Shown: positions 2,729 to 43,440 of the stretch, piece after piece
Layout: the number at the start of each line of letters is the position of its first letter
Numbering within the stretch: the stretch's first letter is position 1
Assembly: GCA_973895155.1 (NCBI GenBank)
Contig: OZ316896.1
Span: 12,442,549 to 12,506,548 of the forward strand
Direction of reading: 5' to 3'
Origin: Marsupella aquatica
Taxonomy: Eukaryota > Plantae > Marchantiophyta
DNA length: 64,000 nucleotides
Program-made: the position numbers and the translations under genes
The notes under the pieces: model-generated
What the model was told of the DNA's origin: nothing
What the model saw: only the letters and a program-made list of their open reading frames with translations
Database searches by the model: none

Positions 2729-5419
2729 TAATTACTTTCACACCAAATATGTTTCAATTTGAGATATCTTACTCCTATAAAGCCCTATCCCGCCAAAAAG
2801 TGGTGGGTAGTCAGTTTACAAATTCACTTTTGGAGGGAAGATTCCATAACCATTGTATTTAAAAGCTCTTTTATCCTAGCCTTTTATTTGTCAAAAAAAT
2901 AATCTATCTAATCCAAAAGCAAACAAGACAGTATTTTTATACACAGAGATTCCCACGAAGGGCATGATAACATATGCTTTATACCATGCGTTAAATCTAC
3001 ATCAGACGTTATCTTTGCCCCCATCTTTGTCTTTTGTCACCCTTATTTTACTCTACTGGTAATCGCACATCAAAATGTGGTAATATTTAGTGCACTCATT
3101 GATTTAAAGAAACTAACAAGGTTTATCATGGCATGGAGTAATGTCATACTTTGTATATGTCATATTTTGATGTGTAGTTCCAGAGACTCTCTTCATTTTA
3201 AATTTGTCCTTATTGAAGTCTCATTATCAGTTTTGTTTGTATTGGGAACTAGGGTCTAGAGTCTTCACTCTATACCACAAGCCTCAAAAGTAGTTTCCCT
3301 TAGCAAATAATTAGTACTATTTTTTCATATAATGGTGGCGTCGTGATTTTTATTTGCTAACATTGTGGTCACATTAGTGACAACTCATCACCATTGCACA
3401 GTTTGGTCCCATTTAGGTCCCAGGAATTATTTGTCTCCCCTCCCCCCCCCCCCCCCCCCCCCAACATAGGACCATGGCAATAATATGGAGCAATTTTTAG
3501 GCATCCTGGCTTTAGTCTCAATCATATGGAACAGTTGTCATTATCCTTCTTTTCCTAATATTGAGGTCACATTTGTGACAATGTATCACCATTGCACAAT
3601 TTGGTCACACTTTGGTTGCAGGAATGATCATTAAGAAACTTTTTGGGTCCTAATTTTTTGGGTCCTGTGTGACAGAGAACATATCTAAACTCAAACAACC
3701 TTTTTTCCAATTCAGCACCAGAGCATTGTGTTTGAGTTTTGGAACTTAAAGCCAGGATGGACTGGCAGGTTGTCCATGAAGCCCCCATGGATAAATGAAA
3801 CTTGGATGGACTGGACTAAAACATATAAATATGCATGGATACTAGTGTTTACTTTTCTGTCCATATAAAACAGTGTCACTGACCAAAGCATCACTTCTGT
3901 CCAAATATTTACCCTGTCACTAACTCTGTCCTCACTCATGTCTTAAAGATATTTTGTCAGAGGCCAGAGCACTTTAATTGAAGGCTTCGCTCCATTCCCC
4001 TAATAGAGTTCAATAAAAATATAAGGTATATTTAGGTCCTCATATAAATACTTGATTTGGCCTCCATGGTTTATGAAACTTTGGGTATGAGTGCTTCACA
4101 TTTTACTCATAGTGCCTCTAGTAATTTGCTCAATGGTAAAATGCCAAATGAACTTAATTTACTCACAACTATTTTTTAATGTTTATAAGCCCCGTTAAAA
4201 AGGAAGCACGTAACACAATGACTCATTAACCAAAGGAACAATTCTCACCAAAGAGGCTATTGGGCAAAATCTAATGCCCAAATAACCTCAAGTTTTACAA
4301 TGGATTCATATTTTTCTACACCTTTTTAAAAGATTCTAGGGCATTGACACTTTGCGGAATGACTATACTACTTTCACAAATGTTTTTACATAATCTTGTA
4401 TTTTATATAACATTGCTCTTGTTACCGGGATTGAAGAAAGTTTTTCATTGTGGAGGTAAAGGAAATTTTAATTTCCATAAGCAGTTGATGAATACTATTT
4501 TTGACAGACCATTGTTCTTGTTGTAAATAATGTTTTGACTAATTTATTGCTATAGTGCTACTTGAGATTTTTTGGGGGAGTATTGTTAATGAATCCTATA
4601 TTTTAGAGAGCGCTGCTCTTGTTACAAGGAGCACTTCGAGTACTTTGCCGTGGCGGAGATGCGGAAAATTTTTAATGTGTGTTTTCATTCCATTTCCTTG
4701 ACATTCTCAATTTGACTTTGAGGTGAACACATAATGTTCTTAGAGGGACAAAAATGTAGATAAACAATTAATGAGATAATTTTTCATAATTAGGTGTAAA
4801 ATGATCTGTCCCCTGTCACAGTCCATGGGGATAGATGGGGAGAAAGTAGCAGTCCATCCGGGCTTTTGTTTCTTGAGTTTTGACTCTAAATTGTTATACA
4901 TTGTACACAAACATAAAAATTTCATAAATCATATGACTTTCAATATTCAAACACATTGTCATTTTGAGCATAACACCTTACAATATTATTGGTGAAAATT
5001 CATAATCAAAACTTAAATCATCCTGGGAAAATTATTAGAAAAGCTGTACATAGTGCACTGTATCAATACAAGGTCATGATGGCATTGTGTTTTGGGGAAG
5101 TGCGTAAGCTTTTTAAATACATAGCCACTAAAGATGCTTGAATTTAAAATACTGGGTCACATTTTTATTTTTTTAGAAAAATGTCACTTTTTTTTTGTAT
5201 TTGCAAAAATGCCACATGATTTTTTTCTTACAAAAACTCCACATGGAATATGTGTTACCTTGTGAATTTGTCATTTACAAGTATAAACCCTAAACCCTAA
5301 ACTCATCTTTTTTCATCATTGGTCCCAATACAAAGAAGTTCCGGGATATAAAGATTCAATTACATTGATTGTTTTCACTAACCACTGATGAAAGATCCAT
5401 AGTAGTTTATTTACATTAA

Positions 5420-7425: not shown

Positions 7426-10400
7426 TCAATCCGCCACCTCAACACTTGGATCGTATACAGGTTGCCGAACAAATTGACCTCGCACACGTGGCCTCTGCTC
7501 TGCAAGTCTTTTTCGACTCTGATATCGCACCTGCAAAAGGAAATTAATGCCACTTGTTAGAGGAGGCAGTCAGAGGAGGCACAACTTGATGTGAACCGAC
7601 GTAACCTGTAAAGAAACTAGCCCACTCAAATTGAAACATAGCAATCGGGCTGACCTTCTTTTCAAAACATCGATCCTTCCTCTTTTGCCTGAACTTGTTA
7701 AGGGCAGCTTCTCTTCGATTGAACCGACTTTGCTCGTGATTATTGACAGCACAATGAGGAGGTCCAGCAGAAGCGTTTCCGTGGATAACAGCACCGTCGG
7801 CCACATTCTCTGCAGGATTGACGGCTGCACTACTGTGTCCATGTTGGTTGTACATATTATTACTGCCTGACCCACTACCATTGACACTTCCATTGCCATT
7901 GCCGGTACTTCCATACCCATTACTACTCCCACTCTGCCAAGTGTTTCCATCTGCCATGTTTGATGAACCACACCCGGGAGCTCCAGATGCCTGGTTTATC
8001 ACAACCTGGTCATCTTGTTGAGATTGCGCAGAAGGTTGACCAAGACGGGTATGGGCCTGCTGTTGTTGATGGTGTGACGAATGATGGAGACCCTGCTGTT
8101 GTTGTTGTTGTTGTTGTTGGTGGTGATGATGTGACGAATGATGAGCAGTGTGTGAACCGGGGTCATGACCATGAGGATGATAAAACACTTGCCCTCGGTC
8201 GGACAAGTGCGTACCTGCGGTGGCCCATGGAGGTGCACCAGAGTAATAAACTTGATGCATCGCCTGTCCATGTCCATATCCCGTGGGCACGCTCTCGTAA
8301 ATCATTCCCCGAGGAGGGAGGGGATTAGAGATAGGACGACCTTGGCCGGACATAGGGGAGACTGAGACAGCCTCATCCTTTACTTGCTGAGAGTAACTTT
8401 CAGGAATGGAAGAGCCGACCCTAGAAGACCCCAAATCTTGACCTTTTCCCTTGTGGGATGCTCTCGGATGAATTGCCTGAGGGTTAGAAGGCCCCTCTCC
8501 GCTACCTTTTGAAGACCCTGCTCGGTCCATGGGCATCGAGAAGTACGCTTGCCCATTACTGCCAGACCCGAGTTGATCAGTCGCCGGAGAAAGCGAATGT
8601 GTCCCATACGCAGCTCCAGCAGGATACCCAGAGAGCGAGAGAGGGGTGCCGCCCGGTATTTGCTGTATCGTTGTACCGTTCGTGCTATACCTGGAATGAA
8701 GAAAACGGATGGTCAGCAACCTTCCAGAATCTGATAATTCTTTGCTCAAGTTGTGCAATCAAATGCAAACTTTTGGAACCATTCTAACAATTGATATCGT
8801 GTGCCGGATGAAGAAAACAGCTTCGAAAGATCTAATAATATGAAGCGCACCAAACAGGCACCTCAATCTGATCAGGACGAATGATCCGCTGGCCAATTAC
8901 ACGAAACAGTACCTCGAAAACGCAGAGCCACCGGAATGCCGGAGAACCCGTTTCTCGTTGCCGTCATCGTCACCGGCAGCACGCGGTCGTTTCAACGATA
9001 GTTCCAGCAGCGGAGGGGAATTCGAGCTTGTCACACACTTGTCGTTCGCAGGACTGTTACTTGCTCCTCTGTCCGAACCTTCCGCCCCTTCACCGCTCTC
9101 GACTCCGTCATCAACATCCTCGTTGTTTTGAAAAGTAATCCCACCGATTAAGTCGATCGCTTCTCCTGCATCGGAATTGCTCCTCTTGTTATCGCTGTTG
9201 CCACTTCTTAAAGGCGAGTCGTCTTGTCTAGCTTCGGCAGCGGCTTGATTGTCGACTTTGGGGGATTGCTCCATGTCCAGAGAAGAGGACCTTCGAGTGG
9301 CCATCTCCAGGTCCTGACCCATTTGATTATCTGTACATGAGACAGAGTACTAAGAGTGGGCACAAAGAAGGAACAGGCCGGCACTAACGAAATTGAGCAG
9401 AACCATCGTAGATGAAGTACGAATATCAAAGTCGATTATCGGAGCATCACAACCCAATGGAGTATACTTGACTAATTGCGAAGGTCAGGCCAGGAACCCT
9501 TTCCAACCTCGAAACCAACCCAGTGACACAGAATCAGATGAATCAACCTGGTACGAGAAAGATGGCGGCCAAGTAAAGGATCAGTAGATAAGGACTTACC
9601 AGACTCCTTTTGCAAAGAGGTAGCCTGACTCTCCTTGACGTCAGGTTTATCTCTCTTTTGCTTATGAAAACCGTGAACAACAGCCTGTACAACGCACGAT
9701 CAAGTTACGGTGCTTGTTAGATGCCCGTCGAGCTTCATATGCCACTAGACATACTAGATCAGAAAATCGCATGCAAGACGACCCGGTGCATATTCTCATC
9801 GCCAGATTCTTCCAGAATCGAGTTAAGCGTCTGCACAAGTAAAATCCACCTATCTCACTGAGAGCTCACGTGAGCTGTGCTAAGTGCATGGAGACCTTTC
9901 CCAAAATTTCTAATGGATGAGCAGAAGGCAGATAACAGAATCAGACACTGAAACTCACTTGTGTGCCACTGCCATTATCACTCCCACCCCGCACGTTCAA
10001 ACCACTGCTGTTATCGTCGCTGCCATCGTTACTGCCAGTGTTGTTGCCCGATCCGACTTTGCTCTTCTGGCGCCCAACTTTCACCCCGTTACCACTGCCA
10101 CTTCCTCCACTACCGCTGCCGCATGACTGAACAGACACAACAGCACAATCGTGGAATAAGAGATCCATCAACCACCTTCTTGTCCGTAATCATTACTCAC
10201 TACGAGTCTACGCCACTGACAATTAAAGTTTCGCTAGACAGATAGAGATCATGGATACGTAAATGTTCAAAGGTACAACCCCTTGTGGCAGCAAGAGGGA
10301 TACTTACGCTTTGGCACCTCCACACATGCTGCCACAAATTTTTGAGCTCGTTCTTCCGGACAGGCTTCACGAGGAAATCGGCGGCTCCCTTCGATAGACA

Positions 10401-12094
10401 TCTAAACACTATGTCGAGAGAGTCGTGGGAGGACATCACTGCAAGCAATGGATCCCGGTCAATACCTTCAACAGCTGCGTTGCAAGTATTATACCAAGAC
10501 ACAAGCGCGCAAGAATCACGCCAACCTCCACATTCAATACTCACGAACCCCTCAGGATTGTAGGAGCTACTCCACAAGATCGCTGCGACTACCTAGCGAG
10601 GGATCTATGAACTCAAGCCAACCCAAAACCTCCATTTCTACAGAGAACCAGAGCATGCAGGGTGGCCAGGAGCTTACTAATGACGGGGATCCTTTTCGCC
10701 GATTCGTTACTCATAATCTTGGATAGTAAGCCGACACCAGAAAGGCAAGGCATCACGACGTCAGTTAAGACCAAATCGAAGTGGTTGTTGGGATCCTCCA
10801 ACATCTCCCAAGCTTGCATCCCATTTGCAACTGCTGAAACTGCAATAATTCCACCAAATCGAGAACACATCAGAACTTGGACATCACAGGATTGCATTCC
10901 ACTTGCAACTAATCGAGTGCAATTCCAGATACGTCAGTTCCTGAGAAACCAGATCCACTCTGTTTCAACCCAGAACACATGGAGTCAGCGTACGGGCATC
11001 GGACGTGGACCAAGGGACCATCTCGTAATATATCGCCGGACAAGCAATCAGCAAACAGCTATCACACCGCGTTGCAAACAGAAATGCAAGACAGCCCGCT
11101 AGGCAAACGGTAAAAACTGGTCTAACAGTACCAAGGTGAGGACCTCGCTACCAAGAAACGAAAGTGGCACTTCGCATGGACACATGCCTCAAAATTAAAA
11201 GAGGAACCTTCCCGCTGAAAGACCCTTCACTTCGGAAGCTGGATACCAACCACATGAGAACAGGCCACAATGCTAAGCAAGTACGAAGCAAAGCCTGTAA
11301 CCCAGGAACCGGCTGTCTGACTTCGGGTCCTGCCAGGGCACCGAGACAGTTTGGAGCAAAACGGGGACAAGGGTAAACAGAGGACCGGAACAGTATCTCT
11401 GAAGGCTCCAGTAAGGAAACCAAGACATACCTTCATAACTGCAGTTGCGGAGAAGCGCGCAAACGACTTGCCTCGTGGAATCATCGTCTTCTGCTAGCAA
11501 CACCTTGATATTACTCCGTGGGAGGAAGCTCTCCCAGCCAACAGGGGAAACGGGGCTCTGGGCTGGTGGCTGGGTGTTATCTTGCTTTGGCTCCTTTCGC
11601 TGCTGAGGTAACTGTTGTGCTGCAGAGGTTTGTTGCTTATGTTGTTGCTGCTGATCCTGCTGTTGCTGCTTACGGCTAGGCTCTGACAGCACTTCAACGA
11701 CGGGCCCATCGCCCTCAACCATATCGTCCTCCGGCTCCTCGTCTCCGTATCCCTCGGACGAAAGTGCTTCGACCTTCCTACTCTCTTTAGACGGTAACCT
11801 CGCCTCACGTTGCATGCCATGAACGGAAGCATCGTGCTTAACCGATCCCGGGCGACCTTTCAAGGCATCCTTAAAACCTGTCGTTAGATCTGCAGTTCCT
11901 CTGTTATCTTTCTCAGAATCCACCACATCTCGTCCCTGCTCTCCCAATTCTATCTCCATGGCCTCCTTCCAGTGCCCGCCCTTGAAATGGTCCCGTTGCG
12001 GAGGCCCCACATCGAAGTCAACTTGGAACCTCTTTTCGGTAGGAGCTTTCAGTGGCCTGGACTCGGTCTCGCCCTCGCTCAAATCTGCAGTCAT
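7426..12094 (-). CDS. PRR: Circadian-clock pseudo-response regulator, PRR7/PRR3-like (receiver domain, EAR-like motif, CCT domain), ~920-940 aa
   Basis: Phase-consistent GT-AG exons: 12094-11431, 10839-10678, 10438-10308, 10126-9959, (9830-9783 optional, weak donor), 9684-9600, 9330-8913, 8690-7655, 7530-7426. Receiver: [26 protein letters not shown]...[14 protein letters not shown]...[21 protein letters not shown]. Also LELSLKR and [13 protein letters not shown]: [43 protein letters not shown]. Confidence 0.95.
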
Positions 12095-13338
12095 CAGAAA
12101 ACTGAATGGACGCCTCTACGGGAAGTAGAAAACTACCAGCTGATACTTAGCTGAACAGGAAGAAAAGTTGCAGCTACCCTGTCGAACCCTGTCCAACACT
12201 AAACCGATATCGAGGAACTCCTCTTGAACTGCGTCGCGTTTCTCGGGACATCCGCTACCGCTCTGATCCCGCCCAATCTCAGTCCCAGACCAACCCAGAA
12301 CACTTCGAAGTGGAGGCGTCAAGCTTTACGAACCTTCTAACCTCCCGTGGCGGATAATTTCGTCCCGAGTGCAGATGAAGCAGGGGCTCGACGGTAGTCC
12401 TAGAGGGTACCCGTCGATTTCAATGGTGTTCGTGTTCACGACTGCTCACTACCCCCAACAAACTCGAAGAAGAACCGTTCAGACTTTGGCCTTGAAATAA
12501 CCTGCAGGAGCGACACGCCTACGATGGGCGGAGAGTCGCTGAAGTCCGAGACGAACGACAAAACTACAATGACCTCCACACCAGACTGAGCTCGGTCAAA
12601 TCAATCGACTTCCACGGCAGAACTCATCAACCACACAACTCGCATGCATTCGCCGTAGAACTTGTCACAGCCAACAAAGCTTGTACAACCCTTTGCAAGC
12701 CAAATCCCTCCAACCGAAACACCAAATCCTTCTCCACTAGTCAATCAACCGACAACAGTCACGGAAACCGCCGATTCCACCACACGCCGGACGAGGCGAA
12801 CACTCGAAGTCGATCCAAACCCGCGAAAAGAACGAAACCAAGACGATCAAGAAGGCGCCGAGCCCGGCTGCAACATCAAGTTTCTTCGACAAATCTTCCG
12901 CGTACAATCGTCAACACTCTAGCTACCTCTACCACCACTACTCCACCACCGTCAAGACGAGTTCGGCTCACGACAACAAGTTTCGTCAACACATCTTCCG
13001 AATACAATCAATCAAAGACCGGCGCATGAAGCATTCCTTCGCTTGAACAGTCACACCGGCGTCGTTGCCTCAGAGAGATGGAGAGGGAGGAATCGAGGAG
13101 AAGAGAGCAGAGGAAAATCGAAGCGGAACCGTCAATGTCGTGAGGCAAGCAACCTCTCGTGCGGCGTCAGGGTGTGAATCATCGATGTTGAATATGTGTA
13201 AATCGTCTACTCCAAGGGCAGAGGTTGCGGGAGGGCCTGAGGCGCCAGGGAGGCAGGGGACTAGGGAAGTCACGGACGGGAGCGAGCCACGGAGGCTTGG
13301 CGGAAATAGATCGGCCGTGGACCTAATCCAGCGCTCTC

Positions 13339-13579
13339 ATTGGTCCAGAAGCGTTCAACTCTGGTAAAATCTGCCACTGGCAAACCTTAACAGACGCCAT
13401 GACTGGCCGGACCCCTAATATCATTCTACTTTCCCCCTCGCCAAATCGATTTCGTGGCTCTCAGCACCCGGCACACCTCAGTCTTGCCTCCCAGCCCTCC
13501 GTTCGGAGCCACGCCAGCATTTCCTACCATATGCTGCCTTCTCATTGGCCCGAAGCTCACGTACCAGCTAAAGATTTTT
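13339..13579 (-). promoter_or_regulatory. Putative PRR proximal promoter with a CCA1/LHY-type site and CCAAT boxes
   Basis: AAAAATCT on the minus strand at 13572-13579, AAAATCT at 13366-13372, and CCAAT (minus) at ~13339 and ~13544. These lie upstream of a CT-rich leader (~13070-13115 on minus). The TSS is not known. Confidence 0.4.
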
Positions 13580-15253
13580 CCGTGGCCGATCCGATTTCGC
13601 CCATTTCCCGCTTTTTGTTACCGTAACAGAGACTTAGGGTTTGGCTTACCGTCTGGTGAAGGTTTCCGTCATACTTGTTTATTTCCATAATATCCGGTCT
13701 GACATGACATAATTCCTCCTCGTAATCCACATTTGTACTGGCAGAAACAAGAACGGCAGCATTCATTTTCAGCTCTTGTGTTCGATCATATCTGGAGTAT
13801 CCACTATTTGTATGGTGACCACTAATCATCATCCCCACTTCGTCAGGCACTCCTCGGGCTGCCATGCGAGTTACTAGAGTGGATCTTCCACTGCGGTTTG
13901 AAAACAGGTCACGAGGCAATCCAACCACACTCAACATATTACTTAGCCACTTTCCAGCCCGTTCCTGTGCAACCTTATGCTTACGATTGTACCACACGTT
14001 GCTCACAGGGTTAGTAATGGGCCCCAAGAAAAGGTCTGGTTTTGTGTCACCCTCCAGAGGAGGCAAATGTCGCAAATACTGTTTCAAACAAATGATAAAA
14101 TCAATCTCATAACTGTAAAACGATTTACGGAATTGTTCTTCATTGTAGCGATCAAGGGAGTACGAATTGTTCTTGCTCTCTCTTTCTTCAAAACTGCAAA
14201 CAAACTGAAATCCAGTCAGATATCAAACAAGCTGAAATCCAGCAAGAAAATGATAAACAAAAACGTCCTATAGAGCCTACGACACTTACTGCACATACTC
14301 TCGTCCCTGCTTGTCACTACACAGCCGAACATCGTGTCTCATCAGGTTGTACAACTCCGAGCCACCTCGAATCCCCAGCCGAACCAAGACAAAGAAGGCA
14401 AGACGCTTCTGGCATCCATGGGGGCTGGTTATTTGATGATCTATATCTGCTAGAACTGCGGTCTCCATTTCTTCCGTAATTATTTCAGCCTGTGAACAAT
14501 AGGATATAGACATCAGAAACAAACATAAAGAACTCAACAATATAGAAACGGATCAAGAAACCTGGCAATAAACTAGAAACAAATAAGAGAACTTACCTTC
14601 TTTCGTTTCTTGTTCACTCCCTCCCGTGCTGATTTCTTGACTGCAGCTTTCAGTACCATTCGAGTCTTTGCAAAAACGGGATGAGAGTTGATATTGAACC
14701 CTTTCTCGATCAGATTACCTTGTCCTCTGACAGACCTGAGATCACTTGCACGTCTAATGATACGGTTGAATGCATTCATCATGTTCATTAGTGTTGAGGA
14801 AGGATACGTGTTACCATCAACCTTGACAGCCCTGGAGAAAAGGTTACTGAGGAGCAAATCGAGCATGTGTAACGGTAAGTCTCCCAAGAAAATTGACGTA
14901 TCCCAATTCAGGGCAGCACGTAGCGAGTCAGCATGTTTCAATGCCCATCGATCATTCTGGTCCGATGGGAGTTTCTCCTCCCCTCTCCCAGCATCAGCTA
15001 GCATTTGATCTGGAACCGATCGTAAACCAGGTATGCTCAGCGAAAGAGAGCTCACCTCCGAGCTTGCTTCACCAAGTGACTCTGTTGAAACCACAGACAC
15101 AGGGACATCATAAACCATTTCCATGTCAATCTCCACGCCCATAACATCCTCGAACTCGTTAAAGAATAGCGCATCTACATTATCTTCGTCCGCACTCAGT
15201 CGATCCAAACTCGCATCCTCATTCACATCATTCACTGCTTCACTTCCTGCCAT
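13557..15253 (-). CDS. Tyrosine recombinase, Crypton/DUF3504-type (N-terminal part and catalytic domain)
   Basis: Exons 15253-14597, 14489-14290 and 14193-13716 are phase-consistent and stop-free (~444 aa). The frame then reads through the 96-bp repeat to a stop at 13557. Motifs: KVDGNTYPSSTL; RLGIRGGSELYNL (catalytic R); EERESKNN (K); VWY; FSNRSGRST (HxxR position, with H replaced by R); ISGHH (H); GYSRY (Y nucleophile). Confidence 0.85.
13622..13717. repeat. 96-bp direct repeat, copy A (putative element 3' terminus)
   Basis: CGTAACAGAG...CATAATTCCT; differs from 15935-16030 at 2 of 96 positions. Confidence 0.95.
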
Positions 15254-15934
15254 AACATGAATTAGACCCGCAATTATGATTGAATATGATGAAACAGGAT
15301 CAAAAGCTTCCAGCAGAGTCATTCCATTGATGGAGTTCGAATGATTCTGAAACAATGAAACACAATCTTAAATATAAACGTAATGCCAGGAAAGGATATC
15401 GCCATCGAGCTTCAATCTTCTTTGATCCATTTGAAATCATCTCCGCAAGTTGATGATTGTCCATCACAAACAGAACCCCGCCAATCAAAGCAAGGACGCC
15501 TCGGCAGCAGCTTGCACTCCCGCTCGCGCCATCGCCAGCAGCTCGTGCCATCCACAAAAACACAAACATCGAGCACACAGAGCACAGTATCGAATGATAG
15601 AAAGCAGCAGCGTGTCGCCGCCTCCTCAAAATACCTAAACTGAAAACCTATGAAACGTTGAATGAGCAGATTGAGCCCGTAGCGCTTCGCTTTGCCCCTC
15701 GACTATTTTGATTCTCGCCCAGTTCTCTCATTGGTGCACCGGCTATTGGGAGTCGCCAAATCCTAACCCTCCGTTACGTCGGGTAATGACGGTTCAGATC
15801 ACCCGTTACCGGGCGTAACCTGCGCTCCCAGGTTCTTCCCGAAGGTTTCCCGGCTCCCGCCGGTCAACCTTCTGTCAGAACTTGGTCGCCCGTTACACCC
15901 TGGTAACGGCTGACTAAACCCTCATTACCCTATA

Positions 15935-16030
15935 CGTAACAGAGGCTTAGGGTTTGGCTTATCGTCTGGTGAAGGTTTCCGTCATACTTGTTTATTTCCA
16001 TAATATCCGGTCTGACATGACATAATTCCT
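15935..16030. repeat. 96-bp direct repeat, copy B
   Basis: 94/96 identical to 13622-13717; continues into ~21-bp CATAAT-periodic repeats up to ~16100. Confidence 0.95.
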
Positions 16031-16585
16031 TACTGAGTTTCATAATTGACTTACGGAATGTCATAATGGGCCTATGGAATGTAATAATCCGCTTACGGAA
16101 ATAGTACGTTCTTGATGCAAATGGCATATTCCGTCCATCCTTGACAGGTGTCCATCCAATTTGAATGTTCCATCCACACAGTCTGAGTTCAATTTAATAA
16201 CTTGATTTTGGTAAGATATTTTGTCGTATGAACTCCATGGATACAGCGGTGGACAAGTACAACACTTCCCAAATATGGGACTTCACAATTTCTCTCCATC
16301 ACATTTGCTTCCGATGAGTAGCGAGCAGCGTTGCAACTCACTGTCCTATGCATATTTTTGTTTGAGGACTCAAAAATACACTCCATTACAATACAGTAGT
16401 TGTATTACTCAGGTCGAAAGACCATCACAGCGTTCAGTAATCTCTGAAATTTGACATTTTATTGAAATCAAAGGGATCATTAGATCATGAATCCTGTGAT
16501 AAAATTGACGGAAAGAAACAATTGATCATCCAGGAAACTCATGGATTGAATCTTGCTATGCAAAAACTGAATCTCCTGAATCACA

Positions 16586-17231
16586 TCAAGTCTCCTTCTT
16601 CGGATCTTTATTCTCCTTATCATCCTTGACAATAAAGGTGATAGTGCAGTTCTCAAATCTATTCCCTGAGAGACTATTGCCAACAGAAATACTAGAACTA
16701 CTAGTGCCTCCACTGAAAGTTCGAGCTGAAAATTCTGGATCGTTCTTGGCAATCCCTGATATCCAGTCGATCTCATCAAATTTCTTGTGCCACTCAGCCA
16801 TCATCCGCTCCTGGTCTATTGTGTCAACAGGTTCAACTGTTTCAAGTGCTTCCTGTAACAGCAAACCACAACAAGGTATGAATACAAGAGCAGAATAAAT
16901 GTAAGGTGTGGATACAAGAGCAGAACAAACACTGAAACAAACTACGAACCTGCTTGCCTTTCTTTGTCTGACTCATTCCTCATCCACTTTACTGCTGCTT
17001 GATTCCTGTCACCAACAACAAGAGTATTAAGCCTCCAAACCGGACAAAAACCAGATAACAAATACAACACAAATATCTAAACATAAGAGACCAGCATACC
17101 TCACATCGTGGGCTGATAACTGAAAGCTGCAGATTTGGTTTCGAGCTGATCTTTTCAATCAGAGGTTTTAACTGTCCCGAGTTTCCAACAACCTTCTCCT
17201 CCACAAATTGCTTGGACACTTCTATCAAGGC
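16586..17231 (-). pseudogene. Displaced C-terminal exons, probably from the Crypton-like YR gene
   Basis: Exon-like blocks 17231-17100 (ALIEVSKQFVEEKV...PRCE|GT), 17005-16950 (needs a 1-nt frameshift) and 16855-16586 (EALETVEP...GNRFENCTITFIVKDD...*). The F-x-N-C-T-I-x-F tail resembles the C-termini of DUF3504/Crypton proteins as I recall them. Confidence 0.55.
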
Positions 17232-19377
17232 GAGGAAACTAAATATACACGCTGTTGAGTCAATTCGTACCCTTACGCCACGCCGTCGGGCCCTCCAGGT
17301 TTCCTGTTGGCGACCCTGTATATTGAGCTGCAAACTCTGCGGCCGCTAAAGTAGTGTCCGTTGGCGGCCTCGCCCAGAAGTGCTAGCGTACTAATAATAA
17401 CTAGGGTTCATTTTGCAGGGGGAGGATTCGGCCGCTAAAATATAGTCAGGGTTTAATAATAACCATGCTAGACAACAGACGTGGCGGACCGAAACCAACA
17501 AAGACAGGTGGATGCAATAACCTATCATTATTATTAGGTCATCACTGTAAGCCATGGCCTCTTGTTTGGGTGGAACGGCCAAAGAAGATCATTCATTAAT
17601 AAAGCTATCCGATAATCCAAAAGGCACCACTGCGGGCTGGGCAGATATTTCCATGGATATGATGACTACAACCAATTAATTAAAGAAAAGCAGACTACCC
17701 TAGTCGGAGCATCTATGGTATTGTGAAATGGTTTAGCTCATGGATAGAAAGGACATTTGCCTGCTGGATCCAGCCTGCCAGCTTGTCCTCGTGAGGGCTA
17801 GGGCCTGGGGGATTCTAAATGATGTTTTGCTTTGAGCAGCTCCTGTAAAAGAAAACATTGCTGGTAACAAAAGAGTGCAACGGTTTCTGATGCACAAGTG
17901 TGAAGTTTTTGAGGGCAAAAAAAGTACCATTTGGAGCCTTTGTTCCCTTTGAACCAGGGGAAAACCTCACCTGAGCAACCGCACACCTGGTTGGGCAATG
18001 TGGGTGGGGGGAACCCAACTCTATTACAAAGCACCACAAGGCCAGGCCAGGCCAGAGCCAGGAAGCCACCCACCATATTGTGAGTCCCTAGAATAGTTAG
18101 GCACTTGATTCTGCAACCACGGTCTCCAATTTAAATGTAGTTAACGAGGTCAGTAACTTACCTGTAGATAATGATAGGCACTCTGTAACAACTGGAAAAC
18201 CTGGAAACGTTTTGGCAAACTCTTATCTAGAAAAATATATAACTGAGGGTCTTCCAGACAATACTTTGCCAAAAGCTTACAGGAGACAACAAGGTTCCAA
18301 GCAATTCCAATGGATCTAGCATTTCCTTCCCCCTCTTTCCTTCCCTTCATTAGGTTTGCTTTGTCTTTGGGATCATGTCTCCCTGTTTGGGTTTTTTTTT
18401 GCCCTTGGGCATTGTGTTATAGAGCACTTTCTGAGCTCCCAGAAACCAACCATTTATGTGCATGAAAGATACTGAAAATGGTACATCCAGGTTACATTGG
18501 TCCATAGCAGTGTTCACTCAAATGTTGTGATCTATCAGAGCTTTTTCTCCCACTAAAAAAACTGCTCAAAGGCGCTTTTTATTCTTCTCGTATCCTATTA
18601 ATTTAATAGCACTCTACATGTTGTTAATAAGAAAGGATTTTTTTCCTGGGGTTAAGTGGATGTGAGGCCGAGCAGAATTTTTCCCCATCTTTTCATTCGA
18701 CAACACATTATTTTTATTCGCAGCGGAGATTTTGACGTCCGGGAGGATTGTTTCCTTCGTTTCCATTGGGCAATATCGTGAATCTCGACTATCGTTTGTT
18801 CTTTACACAGTCCCGATCCAATCGGGAATCAATGGGGCCCGCCAAGATATTCTGAACTGATCGACTCAAGTCGTCGGACCCTGCGGACTCAGCTCAGCCA
18901 AGCGAATCCAGTACCGAAGGGCCCTCATCCTTTTACACTTACGTCTACAGAGAAATTTACAATTATAATCGCCACGTGTCCTTGCTTTCACGGCTCCCGG
19001 CCCGGACCTGACGGCTGCCGTCGGGAACTCGCCACATCTACGACTTTGAACTTTGCAGCTTGGTGAGGGAACATAATGATGTAGTTCTAATAAACATATA
19101 TAAACCTAGTTGTATATTGTATATCATTGTGTATCACGACAAAATATACAGGGAGCACCCATACGGACCGCAAGGCATGTTATTCTTGTTTTTCGGTGGT
19201 GGGGGGTGTGGGGAAAGGGTGGTGGTGATGGTGCTGCTCAAAAGAAGGCATTTGTTTAGCGAGTTGGATTCACTCTTAGAACATTTGATTTCACATTTAA
19301 AATAACGATTCTTTAAAAACATATTAATTGAGGAGAAGAATAAATATCTGTCTGACAAAGCAAGATGGGAATCTACG

Positions 19378-21499: not shown

Positions 21500-22955
21500 C
21501 TTTCACAATAGCACCTTGGGACATACATTGCCTCAATATCTTTGCCTCAACTTGACAATTTTTCTCGCCTTGACATATTTTTCTCAGCTTGACATATTTT
21601 TATCTCCTTGAGATATTTTCCTCACCCCAATGTTCTTTTCAATCTCACATTGACATCTTTTTCTCACCTTTCCATCTTTCCTTTAGCTCTGCACCTTTTT
21701 TCTCCTCAACATCTTTTATCACCTCAGCAGTTTCTCATGCACCTTGATATATTTTCGCTTCCTGGCATCTCTACTCATCTCAGCATCATATTTTCATAAT
21801 TTTCACATTTTTTTTCTCTCATGTACATGATTTTCTCACCTTAAAATCATTTTCTCACCTTGACATTTTTTTCTCTCATTTAACATTTTTCTCACCTCAA
21901 CATCTTTTTCTCTCCTCGACATATTTTTCTCATCTCAGCATCTTTTTATCTCCTCGATATCTTTTCCTCACCTCAATGTTTTTTTCTCACCTCAACATCT
22001 TCTGGGCAACGCATGGGCATTGGGCTATTTGAATATATATATATATATATATATTGTGCCAAAATAATGAGACTTCACACCCATAAACTATGACAAATAT
22101 TTATATGGTTTTTCATCACAATTGTCTCACAAAATTTGACTCCCAAAGAAAGCCTTGGAAGCAAAGCAAAGAGGGGGAGAGGCAAGGAGAAAGGGGAGGG
22201 GGGGCACATGGATGAGAAAAGAGGGAGGGAGAGGCTTCATCTTGCCCCATCTGGTCGCAGGTAAGGGGTGGAAAAAGTGTCAAGTTTATTTTCTCACCTC
22301 AAAATCTATTGCTTTACTTTACATCTTTTTCTGCTCAAAATCTTTTTCTCTTCTTTGCACACGTTTCTCTCCTCAACATCTTTTGTTCACCTAGACATAT
22401 TTTCTCTCCTCAATTTTTTTCTCATCTCAACATCTATTTCTCTCCTCAATATCTTTTCTCTCCTGGACATATGTTTATCATTTGGACATCTTTTCTCTCT
22501 TTGACATCTTTTTCTCTCCTCTACTTCTTTTATCACCTCAACATCTTTTCCTCACCTCGACATTATTCTCACCTCGATATCTTTTCTCTCCTCAACATCT
22601 TTTCGCTCCTTGACATCTTTTATCGCCTCGACATCTTTTCTCTCCTTGACATCTTCTATCACCTCGACATCTTTTGCTCACCTCGACATCTTTTCTCTCC
22701 TGGACATCTTCTATCACCTCGACATCTTTTGCTCACCTCAACATCTTTTCTCTCCTCGACATCTTTTATCACCTCGACATCTTTTCTCTCCTCAACATCT
22801 TCTATCACCTCGACATCTTCTATCACCTCGACATCTTTTGCTCACCTCAACATCTTTTCTCTCCTCGACATCTTTTATCATCTCAACATCTTTTCTCTCC
22901 TCGACATCTTTGTTCACCTCGACATCTTTCGTGCAACGCATGGGCATTGGGCTAG
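21500..22955 (+). mobile_element. Non-autonomous Helitron with ~18-bp CT-rich minisatellite and two tandem 3' termini
   Basis: Ends in CGTGCAACGCATGGGCATTGGGCTAG|T (22930-22956), a plant Helitron-type subterminal hairpin followed by CTAG and T. A degenerate earlier terminus GCAACGCATGGGCATTGGGCTAT lies at 22006-22028. Internal arrays of (TC)ACCTCGACATCTTTT units. The 5' boundary is approximate. Confidence 0.75.
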
Positions 22956-25900
22956 TAATATATAATAACACATAGATAGAGGACTAGGGTTGGGGCAAAC
23001 CGCAGCATGGGCGCATATAATAGATAATATTTTGAACATAATAGAATACATATGGACAATGTATTCAGTCTAAGACCGCCAAATTGTAAACATAAACTGA
23101 ATTGGCCCAATGATGTTGTCTGGCCGCTCCTTGGATGCAGTTTTCAGGTCTTGAAGGGTAGTCATAGCAAGAACACAAACTAGATCAACAAGAATAGGAA
23201 TAGGGAGCACCATAAAATGTCCAGAAATGAAACTAAACACAATGAGAACAAAGTTCCCAACAGGTTTTAGAAAGGGCCCGCACATTTGAATTTTAAATAT
23301 TCCTTTGACATTTTTATATAATATTCACATCAACTTCAGAAAGCAATGAGGATAAGGCCCTACAGTGCTCGCGTGCTTCAATACGGTCGTAAACTCCTTC
23401 ATTTCCAGTTTGGATATCTACAATAGCCACAGTGTATTCAACCTAGTTGGGAGGCAAGGCTATGGCACTTGGTGCTCCAATGCGGCCGTAAGGCCCTTCA
23501 TTTGTAGTTTGAATGCAATCGCCACAATGTATTTAACCAAGCTGAAAGGCCACAACACTACGTTGCTTGGGTGCTCCATTGAGGTCGAGGGCACTTGCAT
23601 GATAGATGCATTACACAATTGTGGTATGCCATATATGTCAGAATCCTTAAAAAAGGAGGAAGAAATGGTGAAATGACTAACTTTCAAAACTTTTTGGAGC
23701 TTTTTGATTGCATTTAAGTCATTTGGTGACTTACCAAAGGATATCACTCAAGTTTTGCAAAGAATGTCATTGGACGTCACCCGACATTTACAAAGGATGT
23801 TCGTTAGCGGTGTCCAAACTTGTTATATGGGGCGCTTTCAAGAGGCCCTCAACAATTTGATAAAAGACGCCCTTCAAAAGTGCCCAAGCCTAAGGCACTT
23901 GATATGTTTTTGGTCCAAAGCTCTTATTTATTTGAAAGTCTTCTATAACTTCAGTTTAGCTGGAAATTTGCAAGCATGATCTTTGGAGTATAATTTACTT
24001 GCTGGCAGTGTTCAAGACTTTTTGAAGTTGGTTTACTTGGTTTTTGATCAGGTCTATGTTAGTCAATTTTTATATTCGCATTCAATTACATCAAATTTTA
24101 ATTAACTGTTCTACTTTGTTTTACATATTAGTTTTCATTGGAGTATGAAGAGGTATGTCTTTTCATCTTTCCAAGGATATCCTTAATATTTTTTTTTAGT
24201 TAGTTTTTGGTTTTCAATGAGTGAAAAGTTACACCTTTTCATTTCCTCTTGACCATCCTTGCTTGAGGCATTATATAAGGAAAGATAATACACTAGTTAG
24301 GTAAGTTAGTTCTTGCATATCTTAGCCGAAGAGATTTTCCCTTTGACATTGATTATGGAGATATTTAAGACATATTTTGAATGTCACTCCTTAGGTGAAG
24401 AAAAGGAGACTAACTTCCTTCTATATTAGATTCCATGAGGAATTTGGATATGGAAGTAAAACTCCATAAATATATGTGATTTGTATCTTGGATCATAGAT
24501 AGCAGTGGCTTGAGATCCAATATATGAAACTCTTTCCTTATGAAACTCTAGAGTTGTCCAAAATATCTCTTACCATGTATGATTGGTAAGAATTTGTGGA
24601 AGTCTAGAGGAGAATTCATTTCAAGCTTTCTAAGGTAAAAGTCCATTCTCATGAGTTTTAGTACCGTCATTGGCAAACAAAGACTAGTAGCATTCATACC
24701 AAGTTGCGCATCGCCACAGTTTACTAGTTGGGACTGCACACAATGTCTAGAAATATCTTTGTGGGCTTGGTGAACTAATACTAGAAGGAGGAGAAATGAG
24801 AGTATAAATTTAGGAAGTAGTCAGAGAGGGGTTTTGTGTACCTTTTAACATCTTAAAGTGGCCACATCCTTCCATAAGCTATGGTGATGGAGGTAGCGCA
24901 GTGCTGAAGCCTGATTTTAAAAGTCCTAGAGTTATAGTCTATGAAAGAGAATTATATTCTCTTGTCTTTTGTTAATTGTACATTTTGGTTTCAAATGTGT
25001 AAGAGGTTGAGTTTCCTCTTTAAAGCACTCATTTGTGTTAAAACACTCCATTCCCATTCTGTTTTGCTTTTTAGGGGAACAAATTCTGAGTTTTTACTTT
25101 TATTATATGCAATTTATGCATTGACCCTATACCACAACAATAATTACCTTTTGAGATCACTACACAAGACCAACCACATTGTTATCAGGCTGCATATTCA
25201 GCCTAACGTGTGTGGTAACAACTTTCACAAGAACATTGTTGTACGGAGTGGGCCTAGAGGTCCACGGGAGAGAGTCTGAAAGTTTGGGGTTCTCTCGGAG
25301 AGAATCTCCATCTTTTGGTCCATTAAGAAAAAAAACTTTGTTGGAGGTCCACTAAGTATATATCTCAACTTTCACGACTCTTTGTTGTTTGTTGAGTTTG
25401 AGAAAAAGGTACTCCAATCTGAGTTGATTTGTTTCTGTCTAAATTGTGTAATGAAGACTTCATATAGTCAAACTGCTATCCAAGAAATTTCTTGATTAAT
25501 TAGCCCAACATGGCCTCATTTTGCCTCCGCATTCATTCTAAGTTCAATTGAAACGTTCCATAGTTTTGTTCCCATAATGTCTAATCGGATTCACTTAAAG
25601 ACATTCCAGCTCAGCATTGAGATTGATAAGCAATGGAATGAGAAAAGACCTTCAGGCCTTCCAGGAGACCTGCCTCAACCTGTATCATGCTCTGCAACTG
25701 AAATATAGTCCATGTCATGCTGTCAATACCACAATTGCTGTCCCTTCCCTTGCCGTGATTCGGCATTATTTGGAGGAGTGTTACGGAGAGTTCAGGTGGA
25801 GGTAAGGGAACTGATCCTAGACTCTTTTAAATGCTGCTTGAATTGATCAGCTCTGGTCCGATCTGGATATTGGGATGCTCCGTGAACATTGAGTCCAGCA

Positions 25901-29302: not shown

Positions 29303-31408
29303 CAGTGGCCCCCTCCCAAACTGAGAATCATTTAAGATTGGAGGACTCCAAATATCTCGAGGATCTGCAATTCTGCATGCGGAACTTGCCGGCCACGATT
29401 TTGATCTGTTACTTTACCCTCTCGGAGTTACCGCCGACTTCTCCGAGACTTTTACCGTACCAGGCGGAGATCCCGCCACAACATTGCTGCCGGACCATAC
29501 AGTAACTTTCTTGGGGAAAGTCGGGGGAAAGGTGAAATTACGACGGTACAGGGCACTTTTCGTTCGCCGTTAACTTGGCTACCAAGTTTAGCGGTTTGGC
29601 CACGATGCCTAGACAGTATTTCCAGTGTAGCTCGATATGGACCTTTGTTGTCCTTTCGAAGTTTGGAGGTCTTAATTTGCCCTGCCTGCAATTACACATC
29701 AATGTGATACTATATGGTATGCAATCATTAATTTAAAGAGAAGAACGAGGTTATACTCATGATATGAAAGGATATTGTACATGGGATATGTCATATTTTG
29801 ACCTTAATTTGCCTCATTTTATAATGGGGCCTTTAAAAGAATTTGGCTTCCAAGTTCACCGGTTGGCCACGATGCCCATAGTTTCCAGCGTACCTCCATT
29901 GGACCGCTGTTGTCCTTTTGAATTGTGGTGGTTTTAATTTGCCCCATTTGAGTTGGTCTTTACGAGAACTTGGCTTCAAAGTTTTGCAGTTGGCCACGAT
30001 GCCTATAAAGTATCTCCAGTGTGCCTTGATATGGACCTTTGTTGTCCCTTTGAATTTTGGAGGTTTTTATTTGTCCCGTTTTCCGGGGGCAAGTTCAGCG
30101 GTTGGGCCATGACGTCCATAGAGGTTTTCCAGGTGTACCCCTATAGGGACCTTTGTTGTCCTGTGAGTTTAGGTGGCTTAATTTGTCTCATTTGAATGAG
30201 TTTAATGAACCTGGTGCAGAGTTTGTATGAGGGTTTGGTGCTCCTTTGTCCCCTCAAAAGTTCAGTACTCTAGTTTCCACACTAGAGCATCTCCACTGGT
30301 TGGGTGGCAGATGCTCCCCCAAAAATAAAACTAATTGTGTGTTTATGGGCATTAGGATGATTGACAGTCCACAGCCCCACCAAAAATCCCCCAAACTGAC
30401 CCCATTTCTCAAATAGTCTGTTTGTACTTTAAAATGTACTACCCAAATGGATCTGAATGTGTTTTCTCTGTCTACTGAGAATGGAAATCTCAAAGGTGGT
30501 CTGGTTTGGTGACCGTATTTCTTGCTGAAACTGGTAATTGTCAGTTTGGATTTGGAAGCTCACCTCCAAATATTTAGATATCTGGGTTACTTGGGAAATT
30601 TTGATATCCAGTTCATTTGGCTGCTTAGTGGCAAAAAGGAGCATCAGTGGAGATGCTTCACGGGCATCCCAAACTGGCCAAACTTCATCTATCACAGTAC
30701 TGTCCGATGTTGATCTCTCATGAGAAATGAGACTGATCCACTGATGGACTAATTTGGACAGCACTACAGTACACAGTACTAGTGTCAATACTGGAACCGG
30801 CCTTTTTTGCAATCTTACTTGAAAAATGAAGCCCATAAACCATGATTCTAGACCTTGACTTTGGGGACGTAAAAGAAATTGAGGGTGTGGGTGGAAAATG
30901 GAGATTTGGAGCAAGATAAGTCTTTGAAACAGACGCACCAGATTTAAATGTACTCACCTCTATTCATGAAACAGAATGATTTTTGCCAATACATTTGCGA
31001 TTTAGTGAGTGAAGTGCATATGTGGAGGTGCTCTAAACGGCACCTCAAACTGGCCAATGCCTACGTACCAGCCAAACTTGGTCTGTCATGCTACCGTCCG
31101 ATGTTGCAACCTTACTCGTGAGGAGGGATTGATCTGATCCGCTGATGGAACCACTTCGGACAGCACTACACTTCCGCAGCGGCAATCCACATACCAGCCT
31201 TTCTTTTGAGAATTTACGCAATAATCTCACCTAAAACCAATATTGGCACACGGAAAAAATGGGAACCCTGCCAGTATTTTCGCCAGAATCGTAGGTCGTT
31301 TAGGGGTCTACTCACCGAATCTGACGGACCCCCTTAAATTTAGGGAGATCTAACAGTTCAGAAATATCCCGTCAAATTCTTGTACCTCCGTTTGGGAGAA
31401 AAAAACTG
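29303..31408. mobile_element. Non-autonomous DNA transposon (hAT-like imperfect TIRs) with internal ~110-130-bp repeats
   Basis: Left end CAGTGGCCCCCTCCCAAACTGAG versus right end (reverse complement) CAGTTTTTTTCTCCCAAACGGAG. Four copies of a GGTTGGCCACGATGCC...GGACCTTTGTTGTCC unit lie at ~29580, 29850, 29980 and 30090. No TSD found. Confidence 0.4.
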
Positions 31409-33279
31409 ACCGGTACGGTACGACACTGTAACCACAATAATGCGAGTAGTACATCAAGTGACCATGGTAAACAGCGAAGGTGCCACTTGGGCGGCTACTA
31501 ATAAAAGGGACCCGCAAGGCTGCCATCCCATCCTGGCCGTTCGTCTTGACGTGTCCAGTCCTGGTGCGTCAGATGGAGGCCACTTCCGTCCCAATCCGGT
31601 GCAAGTTGGTTTCGTGACACGCGTGTGACGTAGGAGCCATCCACGATATTTCGTGTTATTCCTGACCATCCATCAGCATATCCACTTGGTGATTGGATCG
31701 CCTCTCAGTGGGACATGTTGAGGGTGGGACAGACTTTTAATTAATTAATTAAGGTGAACGCATGTAATTTACTGCGGCTCTCTATAAGTGCAAGGGATCA
31801 TGTTCTTCACTGTCGGTTTATGCTTAGTTTCCCCTTTTTTGCATGCACTTTTTAGTGAGGGCACAATCCCATCAGATTGCACTTACTGGTAAGTGCTATT
31901 CTTTTCACAAGGGTTGCTGACTGGCAGAGGGGCCACTCATTGATAAGTGCACTTACCAAGTAATGCAAACCCCAGTTAAGATCGGCCTTCCTAAGAGTGT
32001 GCACTTAGGGAGAGCCAACTGTACATGTAACTTGATGCAACTCGACATGAAAATTTATGTAAATTACATGTGCAACATCCTAATTAGATGTGAAGTTGTG
32101 GAAATTTGTCCAAATACCTGTCCATATGCTCACGAATTGTTTGGCATAGACTCCCCACCTCCTGATGCTCCATATGTAGTATTCATTTAATAACATATTT
32201 TCTTTAATAACGTATGTGAATCTACCTGAAACTTTGTGAATTACATGTACAACTATGCACGTGACATGTGAGTATATAAACTAGCTTGCATATGCACAGG
32301 GAAGGGCTGGCTGAAGAGTCTCCATTAAACACACCGCATTACATGTACAACTATCCAGCAAATCATGGTAAGATTACACGTCTGAGGAGTTGAAACAACT
32401 ATGCTACAATGTGGTGCACTCGCCACAACATCCATGTGTTGGTGTTAGACAAATAGCAATGGTGACTTGGTGACTGAAAAATTATAATATCACAAACCCA
32501 CTTGGTGACTGTAGCTGACGTTCAGTGTGGGAGATTGTTGAGTGCACAATTGCTCTGCTCAATTCTTCCAAGAACACAATGGCAGAGGGCATAGGACTTC
32601 TCTTGTGATTCTCGACACTCTAAAGGTTTGATGTCAAAAGTGACAAATTCGTCACTGGCAGCCTGGGCCAGGGTGGTTCGGGCTGCAACTTGAAGGTTTC
32701 AAACATAGGGTCATGACAACGTGAACGACTTCAGGGCGAGAGCAGTGGTCATCAGGACTGGGCTTCAGAGCGCTCCTTAAAGTGATTGGTACTTCCACAC
32801 CCTAAAGGAAAAATTGTTCCTGACCACCAACCCCTAGATTAGGCAGAAGGAATGCATTTGGTGTAGATATACTGCAGAGCTATATTTCCTAATTTAATTC
32901 GTTCCGTGACTTAGTGACATGGAGTCAATTGGAGAACTTTAAAGGTTGGGAGAAGATTTCAAAGATGAGACTGTGGTCATGCAACGTGGCCGCATACATC
33001 CATCCCCATTTGTCACAAATTTTAAGAAATTAAATTTGCAGATGACGTATTATAAACTTTTGCAGGGAGAAAAGATGACAAGACTTTCCAGCACCTCCGT
33101 CTAATTGTAGTATCAGTCTCTACCAGAATTTCTCACGGTGACATGAGAGTTTCGCTTGCCCCAGGTCACATCCTTGTCGTGCTCCTGCTCTACCTAGGGA
33201 GACATTTTGAGCAAGGGATTTGGACAATTAAAAACTTAAGAAAGGGTCATGTTGCCAAGATGCATGCCTAGGTTCTGGG

Positions 33280-42640: not shown

Positions 42641-43010
42641 GGGGCTGCCTCGCGAGCCCATAGGGCTGCGTGCCCGGGCGATTAATGGGGCTCCGCGAGC
42701 TGAAGGGGCTGCCTCGCGAGCCCATAGGGCTGCGTGCCCGGGCAATTAATGAGGCTCCGCGAGCTGAAGGAGCGCAAGCGAGCGGGGGGGGGGGAGTTAA
42801 AGGGCCTCCCGCGAGCTGGGAGGATCACGCGAGCGGGGGGGAGTTAAAGGGCCTCCCGCGAGCTGGGAGGATCACACGAGCGGGGGGGAGTTAAAGGGCC
42901 TCCCGCGAGCTGGGAGGATCACGCGAGCGGGGGGGAGTTAAAGGGCCTCCCGCGAGCTGGGAGGATCACGCGAGCGGGGGGGAGTTGAAGGGCCTCCCGC
43001 GAGCCGGGAG
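42641..43010. repeat. GC-rich tandem arrays: 2 x 65 bp followed by 5 x ~47 bp
   Basis: GGGGCTGCCTCGCGAGCCCATAGGG... occurs twice, and GCGAGCGGGGGGGAGTTAAAGGGCCTCCCGCGAGCTGGGAGGATCAC occurs about five times. Confidence 0.9.
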
Positions 43011-43440
43011 GAATGGCCGCGCGCCCTGCATAGGGCCGCGCGCAGGAGGACGCAAGGGTAAGGCCCGAGAAATGGGCCGGGGCGCATGGCGAAGGCGCCA
43101 GGAGTTTTTTCGGTTCTATTTTTTTTTTTTTTCCTTCCTTTTTCTTTCCCTCTTCCTTTTGCACGACCCTCTCATTGCCGAAAGCAAAAACGGGGTTCTT
43201 CTCTCTCTTGCCGGAAGCTCTCTCCAGATTCTAATTATTTTTGAAGCTCTCTCTTTCATGGTGGATTAGTGGGGCTTGCTGGCGTCATTCTTCCAGGCAT
43301 TAGTGGCGGCCGCACGGAGTAGTGACGGGAAATTGAGAGAATTTAAGTGATCGGGCTACGGGGGCTGTTTCGGGCCAGGGAATTGACATTGCCACGGGTG
43401 ACGGGATTGGTGATTGAGAAATTGATTTCGGGATGCATGG

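Follow-up and report, generated by a model that had tools for sequence, protein, structure and literature searches.

The analysed window is a stretch of 64,000 nucleotides of Marsupella aquatica DNA. It is plant DNA, and a spliced gene with response-regulator receiver exons, presumably of the pseudo-response-regulator type, was identified on the minus strand at 8897–12094. About 1.5 kb upstream of the first long ORF of this gene lies a transposable element, and CCAAT-like boxes are found nearby at 13321–13346 and 13526–13551. Self-comparison of the window also revealed degenerate tandem or internal repeat arrays at 21531–22964, 29572–30193, 42617–43012 and 59514–60008, and a dispersed repeat whose copies at 2083–2297 and 1571–1749 match the region of 58.5–59.8 kb in inverted orientation.

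The element carries one tyrosine recombinase (YR) gene on the minus strand, which is split into two parts. The N-terminal part and the catalytic core are encoded at 15322–14597, 14489–14290 and 14193–13716, with a predicted start codon and no internal stops. The displaced C-terminal part consists of the exons 17231–17100 and 16852–16586, which are in frame with the piece ending at 13716. The sequence 17231–16598 matches the post-catalytic tail of 10 out of 152 relatives (best E 6e-10). Across the break, the distance between the catalytic Tyr and the VSK motif was found to be 25 + 4 = 29 residues. Among 18 relatives this distance is 29 residues in 11 (two of them near-copies of others) and 30 residues in one, and the marker is absent in six. 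The reassembled gene has five exons, GT-AG introns with matching phases and 601 codons with zero internal stops. By sequence, the R (RGG), the second R, the GHH and the Y of the R-H-R-Y set are present, and the His of H-x-x-R is replaced by Arg.

The N-terminal piece retains the whole catalytic core, and its reading continues through the second copy of a 96-bp repeat (R2) for 53 codons up to a stop at 13557. The ELCHVR...SLCY peptide was rejected as the genuine YR C-terminus, since the relatives go on with ALxxVSK. A separate gene at 16586–17231 was likewise rejected, as this region is the YR tail.

The 96-bp direct repeat is located at 13622–13717 and 15935–16030 with 94 of 96 bases identical. 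The copy R1 (15935–16030, minus strand) represents the final 96 bp of the 3′ (right) end of the element, and its last 24 bp form the outer arm of a palindrome. R2 (13622–13717, minus strand) is a second copy of the right end, joined to flanking DNA. The order on the minus strand is thus C-terminal exons, 3′ region, R1, site 4 (see below), palindrome, N-terminal exons, R2 and flank. This circular permutation is residue-exact, with nothing lost and nothing doubled. The window contains one whole unit of about 3,516 bp with one five-exon gene, opened inside this YR gene, and in addition 96 bp of the right end. A target-site duplication or an LTR was rejected as an explanation of the repeat, because it is the 3′ end of the element and the break in the gene coincides with its start. 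Near the right end (16017–16100, plus strand) there are four degenerate 21-bp direct repeats, three of which contain CTTAC, and the 96-bp repeat starts inside the first of them. Their length equals two helical turns, and a directional binding array is possible.

The exons of the element themselves gave no Pfam match at the cut-off; the tyrosine recombinase identity was established via P0001, a protein with 59–70% identity. A search with the last core exon yielded four relatives among 143 candidates, two of which are from the liverwort Calypogeia fissa (70–73% identity). The search with P0001 resulted in 561 proteins at E ≤ 0.001, 150 of which were listed. The organisms among 30 looked-up relatives are Calypogeia, Marchantia, Riccia, Ceratodon, Selaginella, Diphasiastrum and Adiantum, the rest being JGI, Logan or ENA records. 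Profile comparison identified DUF3504, QRICH1 and Phage_integrase domains in more distant relatives, and a search of the predicted-structure atlas returned the same families with TM values of 0.6–0.8. None of the four closest proteins reached the DUF3504 Pfam cut-off (best of the plant clade 24 bits vs 29.7), and the sole match in the PDB sequence search was QRICH1 (E 0.036). The AlphaFold model of the last core exon had a pLDDT of 45 and was too poor for use.

For the phylogenetic analysis, 30 proteins with a length of at least 250 aa, the N-x-S-x-R motif and enough upstream sequence were used; the others, the split protein of the element itself among them, were left out. The tree separates 18 proteins with Lys or Arg at the His position of H-x-x-R from 12 proteins with His, with a support of 100/100, and every named protein of the Lys/Arg group is from a land plant. 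Lys or Arg in place of this His was found throughout the land-plant clade (13725–13860 in the window; relatives P0001–P0162), a substitution that may matter for YR chemistry. Judged from these comparisons, the element is classed as a Crypton-type (DUF3504-like) YR transposon of a land-plant clade, about 3.5 kb in length, related to the CryptonA/CryptonI clade but distinct from it. Four plant relatives from Marchantia, Diphasiastrum and Selaginella (P0029, P0063, P0070 and P0078) show several isoforms and orthologue-like conservation, and these may be domesticated Crypton-derived genes.

The window contains one copy of the element, and several related proteins are encoded on different contigs of Calypogeia and of Adiantum. 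Further copies, or the DNA of relatives, could be confirmed in none of 597 + 67 metagenome candidate stretches, 40 genome-contig candidates and 76 + 7 viral-contig candidates, and three alignments gave no usable pattern. Two giant-virus MAG contigs (L001 and L002) encode distant YR relatives with 26–27% identity. No TTAC-N0-9-GTAA site was found at these two loci, which at this distance is uninformative; L001 has a 76-bp imperfect palindrome at 3560–3635.

Between the two parts of the YR gene lie four sites of the form TTAC-N5-7-GTAA, which were confirmed exactly as the earlier note had claimed, with TTAC starting at 15774, 15806, 15893 and 15925. Site 1 (15773–15787) and site 2 (15805–15819) have spacers of 5 nt, site 3 (15890–15909) has a spacer of 6 nt, and site 4 (15924–15940) has a spacer of 7 nt at 15929–15935. 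The claim that the 96-bp repeat ends inside site 4 also proved correct: the lower-numbered end of the repeat falls on the final spacer base of this site. The whole window contains seven matches to TTAC-N5-7-GTAA compared to 1.98 expected, and a count of seven was reached in none of 100 shuffles. Any 170-bp stretch held a maximum of two sites across 200 shuffles of the window, and the same maximum was obtained in 20,000 shuffles of the 204-bp region (0 of 20,000 above 2). The four sites are not independent, as two are located on each arm of one imperfect palindrome. Two sites inside a single 102-bp arm were found in 0 of 20,000 shuffles. The cluster is confirmed as real and beyond chance. Elsewhere in the window (31883–31963), two short palindromes GCACTTAC-N2/3-GTAA(G)TGC are located 70 bp apart.

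All eight half-sites of the element share RTTAC with C-rich bases upstream. Ordinary YR sites consist of inverted half-sites of 11–13 bp around a spacer of 6–8 bp, according to the available text of PMC3212892. The spacers of sites 3 and 4 fit this description, whereas the 5-nt spacers of sites 1 and 2 do not, and the perfect inversion at the sites spans just 4–7 bp compared to 11–13 bp in the canonical half-sites. Words resembling AAACCCTAA, which we take to be the telobox motif, occur in the arms of the palindrome. An explanation by teloboxes only was discarded, since it leaves the TTAC pairs unaccounted for.

The imperfect palindrome that includes all four sites is 204 bp in length (15755–15958) and symmetric about 15856–15857, with an apex loop GGGA at about 15855–15858. 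Its arms are identical in 80 out of 105 alignment columns, and its fold has a z-score of −9.5 (0 of 200 shuffles as good). The better-folding strand is the minus strand, with a folding energy of −74.6 kcal/mol compared to −58.4 kcal/mol for the plus strand. Among 300 palindromes whose polarity was randomised, three reached this lead of 16 kcal/mol. The minus-strand apex reads GC-GGGA-GC, and apex loops of this type are unusually stable in DNA. In the fold of this strand, site 4 pairs with its mirror partner site 1 through a 3x1 internal loop, and site 3 with its mirror partner site 2, where a single A of the minus strand is bulged. Another motif, GAAGGTT(T/G)(C/A)C, was found in both inner arms (15841–15850 and 15867–15877) and once in the 96-bp repeat (15971–15980). 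On the minus strand, 18 bp beyond the palindrome in the downstream direction, a CCAAT-box-like motif (15726–15737) is located, a putative promoter element of the YR gene.

The differences between the arms comprise five transitions, 14 transversions and six gap columns. Each of the 14 transversions opposes two purines on the minus strand and two pyrimidines on the plus strand, and this holds for all nine co-optimal alignments. The one-way P for this 14:0 polarity ranges between 4.6e-5 and 1.4e-3 for seven local base compositions and is post hoc, as the polarity was noticed after the arms had been aligned. Within the sites, TTAC halves and GTAA halves alike show the polarity. Purines make up 35 of the 40 unpaired bases in the minus-strand fold. 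The six other inverted matches of the window show mixed polarity, and the G:T wobbles of the palindrome have no minus-strand bias (3 vs 2). A long imperfect palindrome in which one strand is favoured by purine-rich unpaired parts, as expected of a folded single-strand YR site, is therefore present at this locus. An RNA hairpin, or a mutation process biased towards one strand, could produce the purine skew as well.

At the right outer junction, the palindrome TGTTAC-C-GTAACA described in the earlier note was found, shifted by one base from the reported 13615–13627 to 13616–13628. Relative to the YR gene it marks the right (3′) end and not, as had been assumed, the left end of the element. The junction consists of an element half-site and GTAAC(A) in the flank, either a host half-site or a fold-back scar, with a single base between GTTAC and GTAAC(A). 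The flank half-site does not have the C-rich bases common to the eight half-sites of the element, and the per-position frequency of GTAAC across the window is 0.0007. A host half-site whose mismatched spacer was repaired could account for the single base, as could a fold-back scar. The joint of R2 to the flank maps at most one base from the edge of the site 4 spacer and is the sole element-to-flank joint that falls within 15322–16586; it lies 78 bp short of the palindrome centre.

At the left outer junction (17232–17236, minus strand), the five flank bases are a reverse-complement copy of what an unbroken gene should contain just ahead of 17231. The frequency of such an inverted copy is 0.0015, or about 1 in 100 after several patterns had been considered, and a hairpin scar is possible. 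The internal joint has a microhomology of 2–3 bp, and both outer joints show short inverted copies. The gene break is located 6–7 bases from a GATTAC, and the 96-bp repeat begins at the TTAC of a 21-bp repeat. These proximities hint that the rearrangement was caused by the YR itself; by the density of TTAC, each is expected by chance in roughly 8% of cases. The present copy is a rearranged and not a clean integration product, because the left outer junction lies away from site 4.

Since the YR gene is circularly permuted around the interval between 16586 and 15322, the ends of the element must be fused within this interval. Site 4 is read as the point of fusion because the R2-flank joint is the only such joint that maps to it. 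The cluster is likely the end-to-end junction, in a circle or a tandem, of a land-plant Crypton-type YR transposon. The proposal of the earlier note that site 4 represents the fused right and left ends, and with it the likely crossover point, is supported by the permuted YR gene and by the R2-flank joint at the spacer edge. We consider it probable for this one rearranged copy, whether the site acts as a folded strand or as a duplex.

By analogy with bacterial systems, we tentatively favour a reading in which the folded minus strand of the 204-bp palindrome is the form bound and cut by the recombinase, with the ends joined at site 4. Joining of the ends would create the full hairpin, so that it would be complete only in the joined state. 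Two duplex sites would then arise by pairing: site 4 (7 nt) with site 1 (5 nt), interrupted by a 3x1 loop, and site 3 with site 2, interrupted by a single bulged base. Cleavage by the YR would take place behind GTTAC in the site 4 arm, one strand would be exchanged with a double-stranded target, and completion would be left to host replication or repair, as in integron attC and CTX phage attP. With this pathway, a terminal direct repeat would be unnecessary, and tandem or rearranged copies would be favoured. The earlier note had taken the other three sites as accessory binding sites; the mirror-partner sites and the strand-polarised mismatches fit a folded-strand site at least as well. Several points speak against the model. 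The one-base right junction is not a clean prediction of a single exchange or of a standard double exchange, and we know of no source of a single-stranded circle for this element. The Crypton model published so far, as given in the accessible sections of PMC13565253, involves a double-stranded circle, and double-stranded circles of Starships integrate according to the available part of bioRxiv 10.64898/2026.09.21.753150.

The permutation and the position of R2 are equally applicable if site 4 contains the fused ends and the crossover but is an ordinary double-stranded YR site, with sites 1–3 and the 21-bp repeats acting as accessory or autoregulatory binding sites by the YR promoter. A parallel would be the additional binding sites in a resolvase res site. 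The canonical 7-nt spacer of site 4, the RTTAC with C-rich upstream bases in all eight half-sites, the CCAAT-like box 18 bp beyond the palindrome and the demonstrated double-stranded Starship circles are consistent with it. However, it leaves unexplained why the match of the 102-bp arms reaches outside the sites and why the 14:0 polarity is found on the TTAC as well as the GTAA halves, and we regard it as possible but rather doubtful. Alternatively, the arms could be imperfect terminal inverted repeats (TIRs) of about 100 bp that are fused at the palindrome centre (about 15856), with all four TTAC sites as subterminal binding sites and the R2 end at site 4 due to an aberrant event. The symmetry about 15856–15857, where two inverted half-sites surround a spacer of 4–6 nt, would fit this, and one CryptonF with TIRs of 602 bp is recorded in the available portion of supplement 1 of PMC3212892. 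But the only element-to-flank joint observed in this region is at site 4, 78 bp from the centre, the arms are 76% identical compared to 98% for R1 and R2, and strand-polarised mismatches are not expected of independent TIRs. Fusion at the centre is therefore considered unlikely.

Slightly less likely still is a hairpin that acts as RNA of the YR sense strand or as a replication or fork-stalling structure, in which case the R2 end and the rearrangement would have arisen by template switching or break repair at the hairpin, and the ends of the element would lie elsewhere in 15322–16586. The favoured strand is indeed the sense strand and also gives the better RNA fold (−140.8 vs −120.3), and the internal microhomology of 2–3 bp and the short inverted copies at both outer joints would be accounted for. 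Eight RTTAC half-sites in YR-like inverted pairs are, however, unexpected for a plain RNA hairpin, Rfam returned zero matches at E ≤ 1 across 13000–18000, the candidate promoter box is situated on the downstream side of the palindrome, and the stop of R2 coincides with the spacer edge. It is very improbable that the permuted layout stems from misassembly of a repeated or circular sequence, to which the single copy seen here could point: R1 is distinguished from R2 by two of 96 bases, no residue is gained or lost at the gene break, and the palindrome would be real sequence even then.

Extending the folded-strand reading from this junction to the whole clade, its YR transposons in liverworts, mosses, lycophytes and ferns could recombine a folded single-stranded hairpin and thus be a eukaryotic counterpart of attC and CTX attP. 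This analogy is put forward a little more cautiously than the reading of the junction itself. If true, it would explain the absence of terminal repeats in DUF3504-type Cryptons, whose ends are described as not definable by repeats in the available text of PMC3212892, and it would provide a first testable site for the mechanism. A folded strand as substrate would mean single-strand YR recombination beyond the bacteria. According to the accessible part of a 2026 review, Crypton transposition is undemonstrated and a double-stranded circle is assumed (PMC13565253). The locus presented here combines joined ends with an otherwise unbroken YR reading frame and thus offers a candidate site together with a candidate enzyme. 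Should site 4 act as an ordinary duplex, the locus would still point to a land-plant Crypton clade of which the literature searched gave no description. The Crypton literature covered, mostly at the level of listings and with Repbase and subscription journals outside its scope, contained no description of such a clade or of a folded Crypton junction, including the available parts of PMC13465315, PMC13565253, PMC3537659 and PMC12130899. Land-plant Cryptons may be catalogued in Repbase or in subscription journals.

Compared with known systems, the element is similar to CryptonA, CryptonI and Glomhopper in its single YR gene, the absence of a reverse transcriptase and the size of about 3.5 kb (PMC3212892, PMC13465315, as far as their text was available). 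Like animal CryptonA and CryptonI, which lack terminal repeats according to the accessible sections of PMC3212892, it showed no terminal direct repeat in this analysis, and its relatives carry DUF3504 and QRICH1 domains. It differs in its separate clade (100/100), in the Lys/Arg in place of the His of H-x-x-R and in a long C-terminal tail. Its close relatives are below the DUF3504 cut-off, and a 204-bp junction palindrome was not found described for CryptonA, CryptonI or Glomhopper in the literature searched.

For CryptonS, a group of oomycetes and a diatom, similarities are the size, the minus-strand spacer TATAGG, which resembles TATGG, and TTACTG repeats in three CryptonS families (PMC3212892, available text). 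Most CryptonS families carry TATGG as a terminal direct repeat (accessible parts of PMC3212892 and its supplement 1), present at both ends, whereas TATAGG occurs in the element at the internal junction alone. A terminal direct repeat of 5–6 bp was not found at both ends of the element. The link to CryptonS drawn in the earlier note thus could not be upheld: TATAGG is found at neither outer junction, of which only the right one is a fair test since the left is rearranged, and the named look-alikes of the protein are animal DUF3504/QRICH1 proteins, a group reported to be without terminal repeats. This comparison with CryptonS was based on termini and size.

In the DIRS/Ngaro elements, too, the repeats are split and an end sequence recurs internally as its complement (PMC13465315, available sections), but the repeat layout of the element is explained by the gene break. 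Elements of that group carry reverse transcriptase/RNase H, whereas neither a reverse transcriptase nor a gag is present between 13622 and 17231. The Starship Hephaestus with its DUF3435 captain is likewise a YR transposon with a TTAC motif, asymmetric terminal repeats and an inward-facing YR beside the junction. Its target is TTAC-N7-A (PMC10104507, as given in the accessible text), and a circular Starship intermediate with recombination at TT//AC in double-stranded DNA has been shown (bioRxiv 10.64898/2026.09.21.753150, available part). In contrast to the element, Hephaestus belongs to another YR family, is fungal and giant with cargo, and no long hairpin is reported for it in the available text. 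The shared TTAC motif was given little weight, because it is short and also the target of IS608 (PMC13565253, accessible sections).

The bacterial sites attC and CTX attP belong to systems in which integrons use IntI and CTX borrows XerCD; the comparison with them is a working analogy and implies no sequence or family relationship. According to the available text of PMC5027507, attC is recombined as a folded bottom strand that has an unpaired central spacer and extrahelical bases, is enriched in purines and is 2.1 kcal/mol more stable than the top strand. CTX attP consists of two inverted sites with centres of 12 and 7 nt, about 90 bp apart, and works only when folded into a 150-bp hairpin, with a single strand exchange that is finished by host replication or repair (PMC3089051, accessible part). 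Features shared by the element with both are inverted sites whose spacers differ in length and which come together in one long hairpin, an internal loop and a bulged base, and a purine-rich, better-folding strand.
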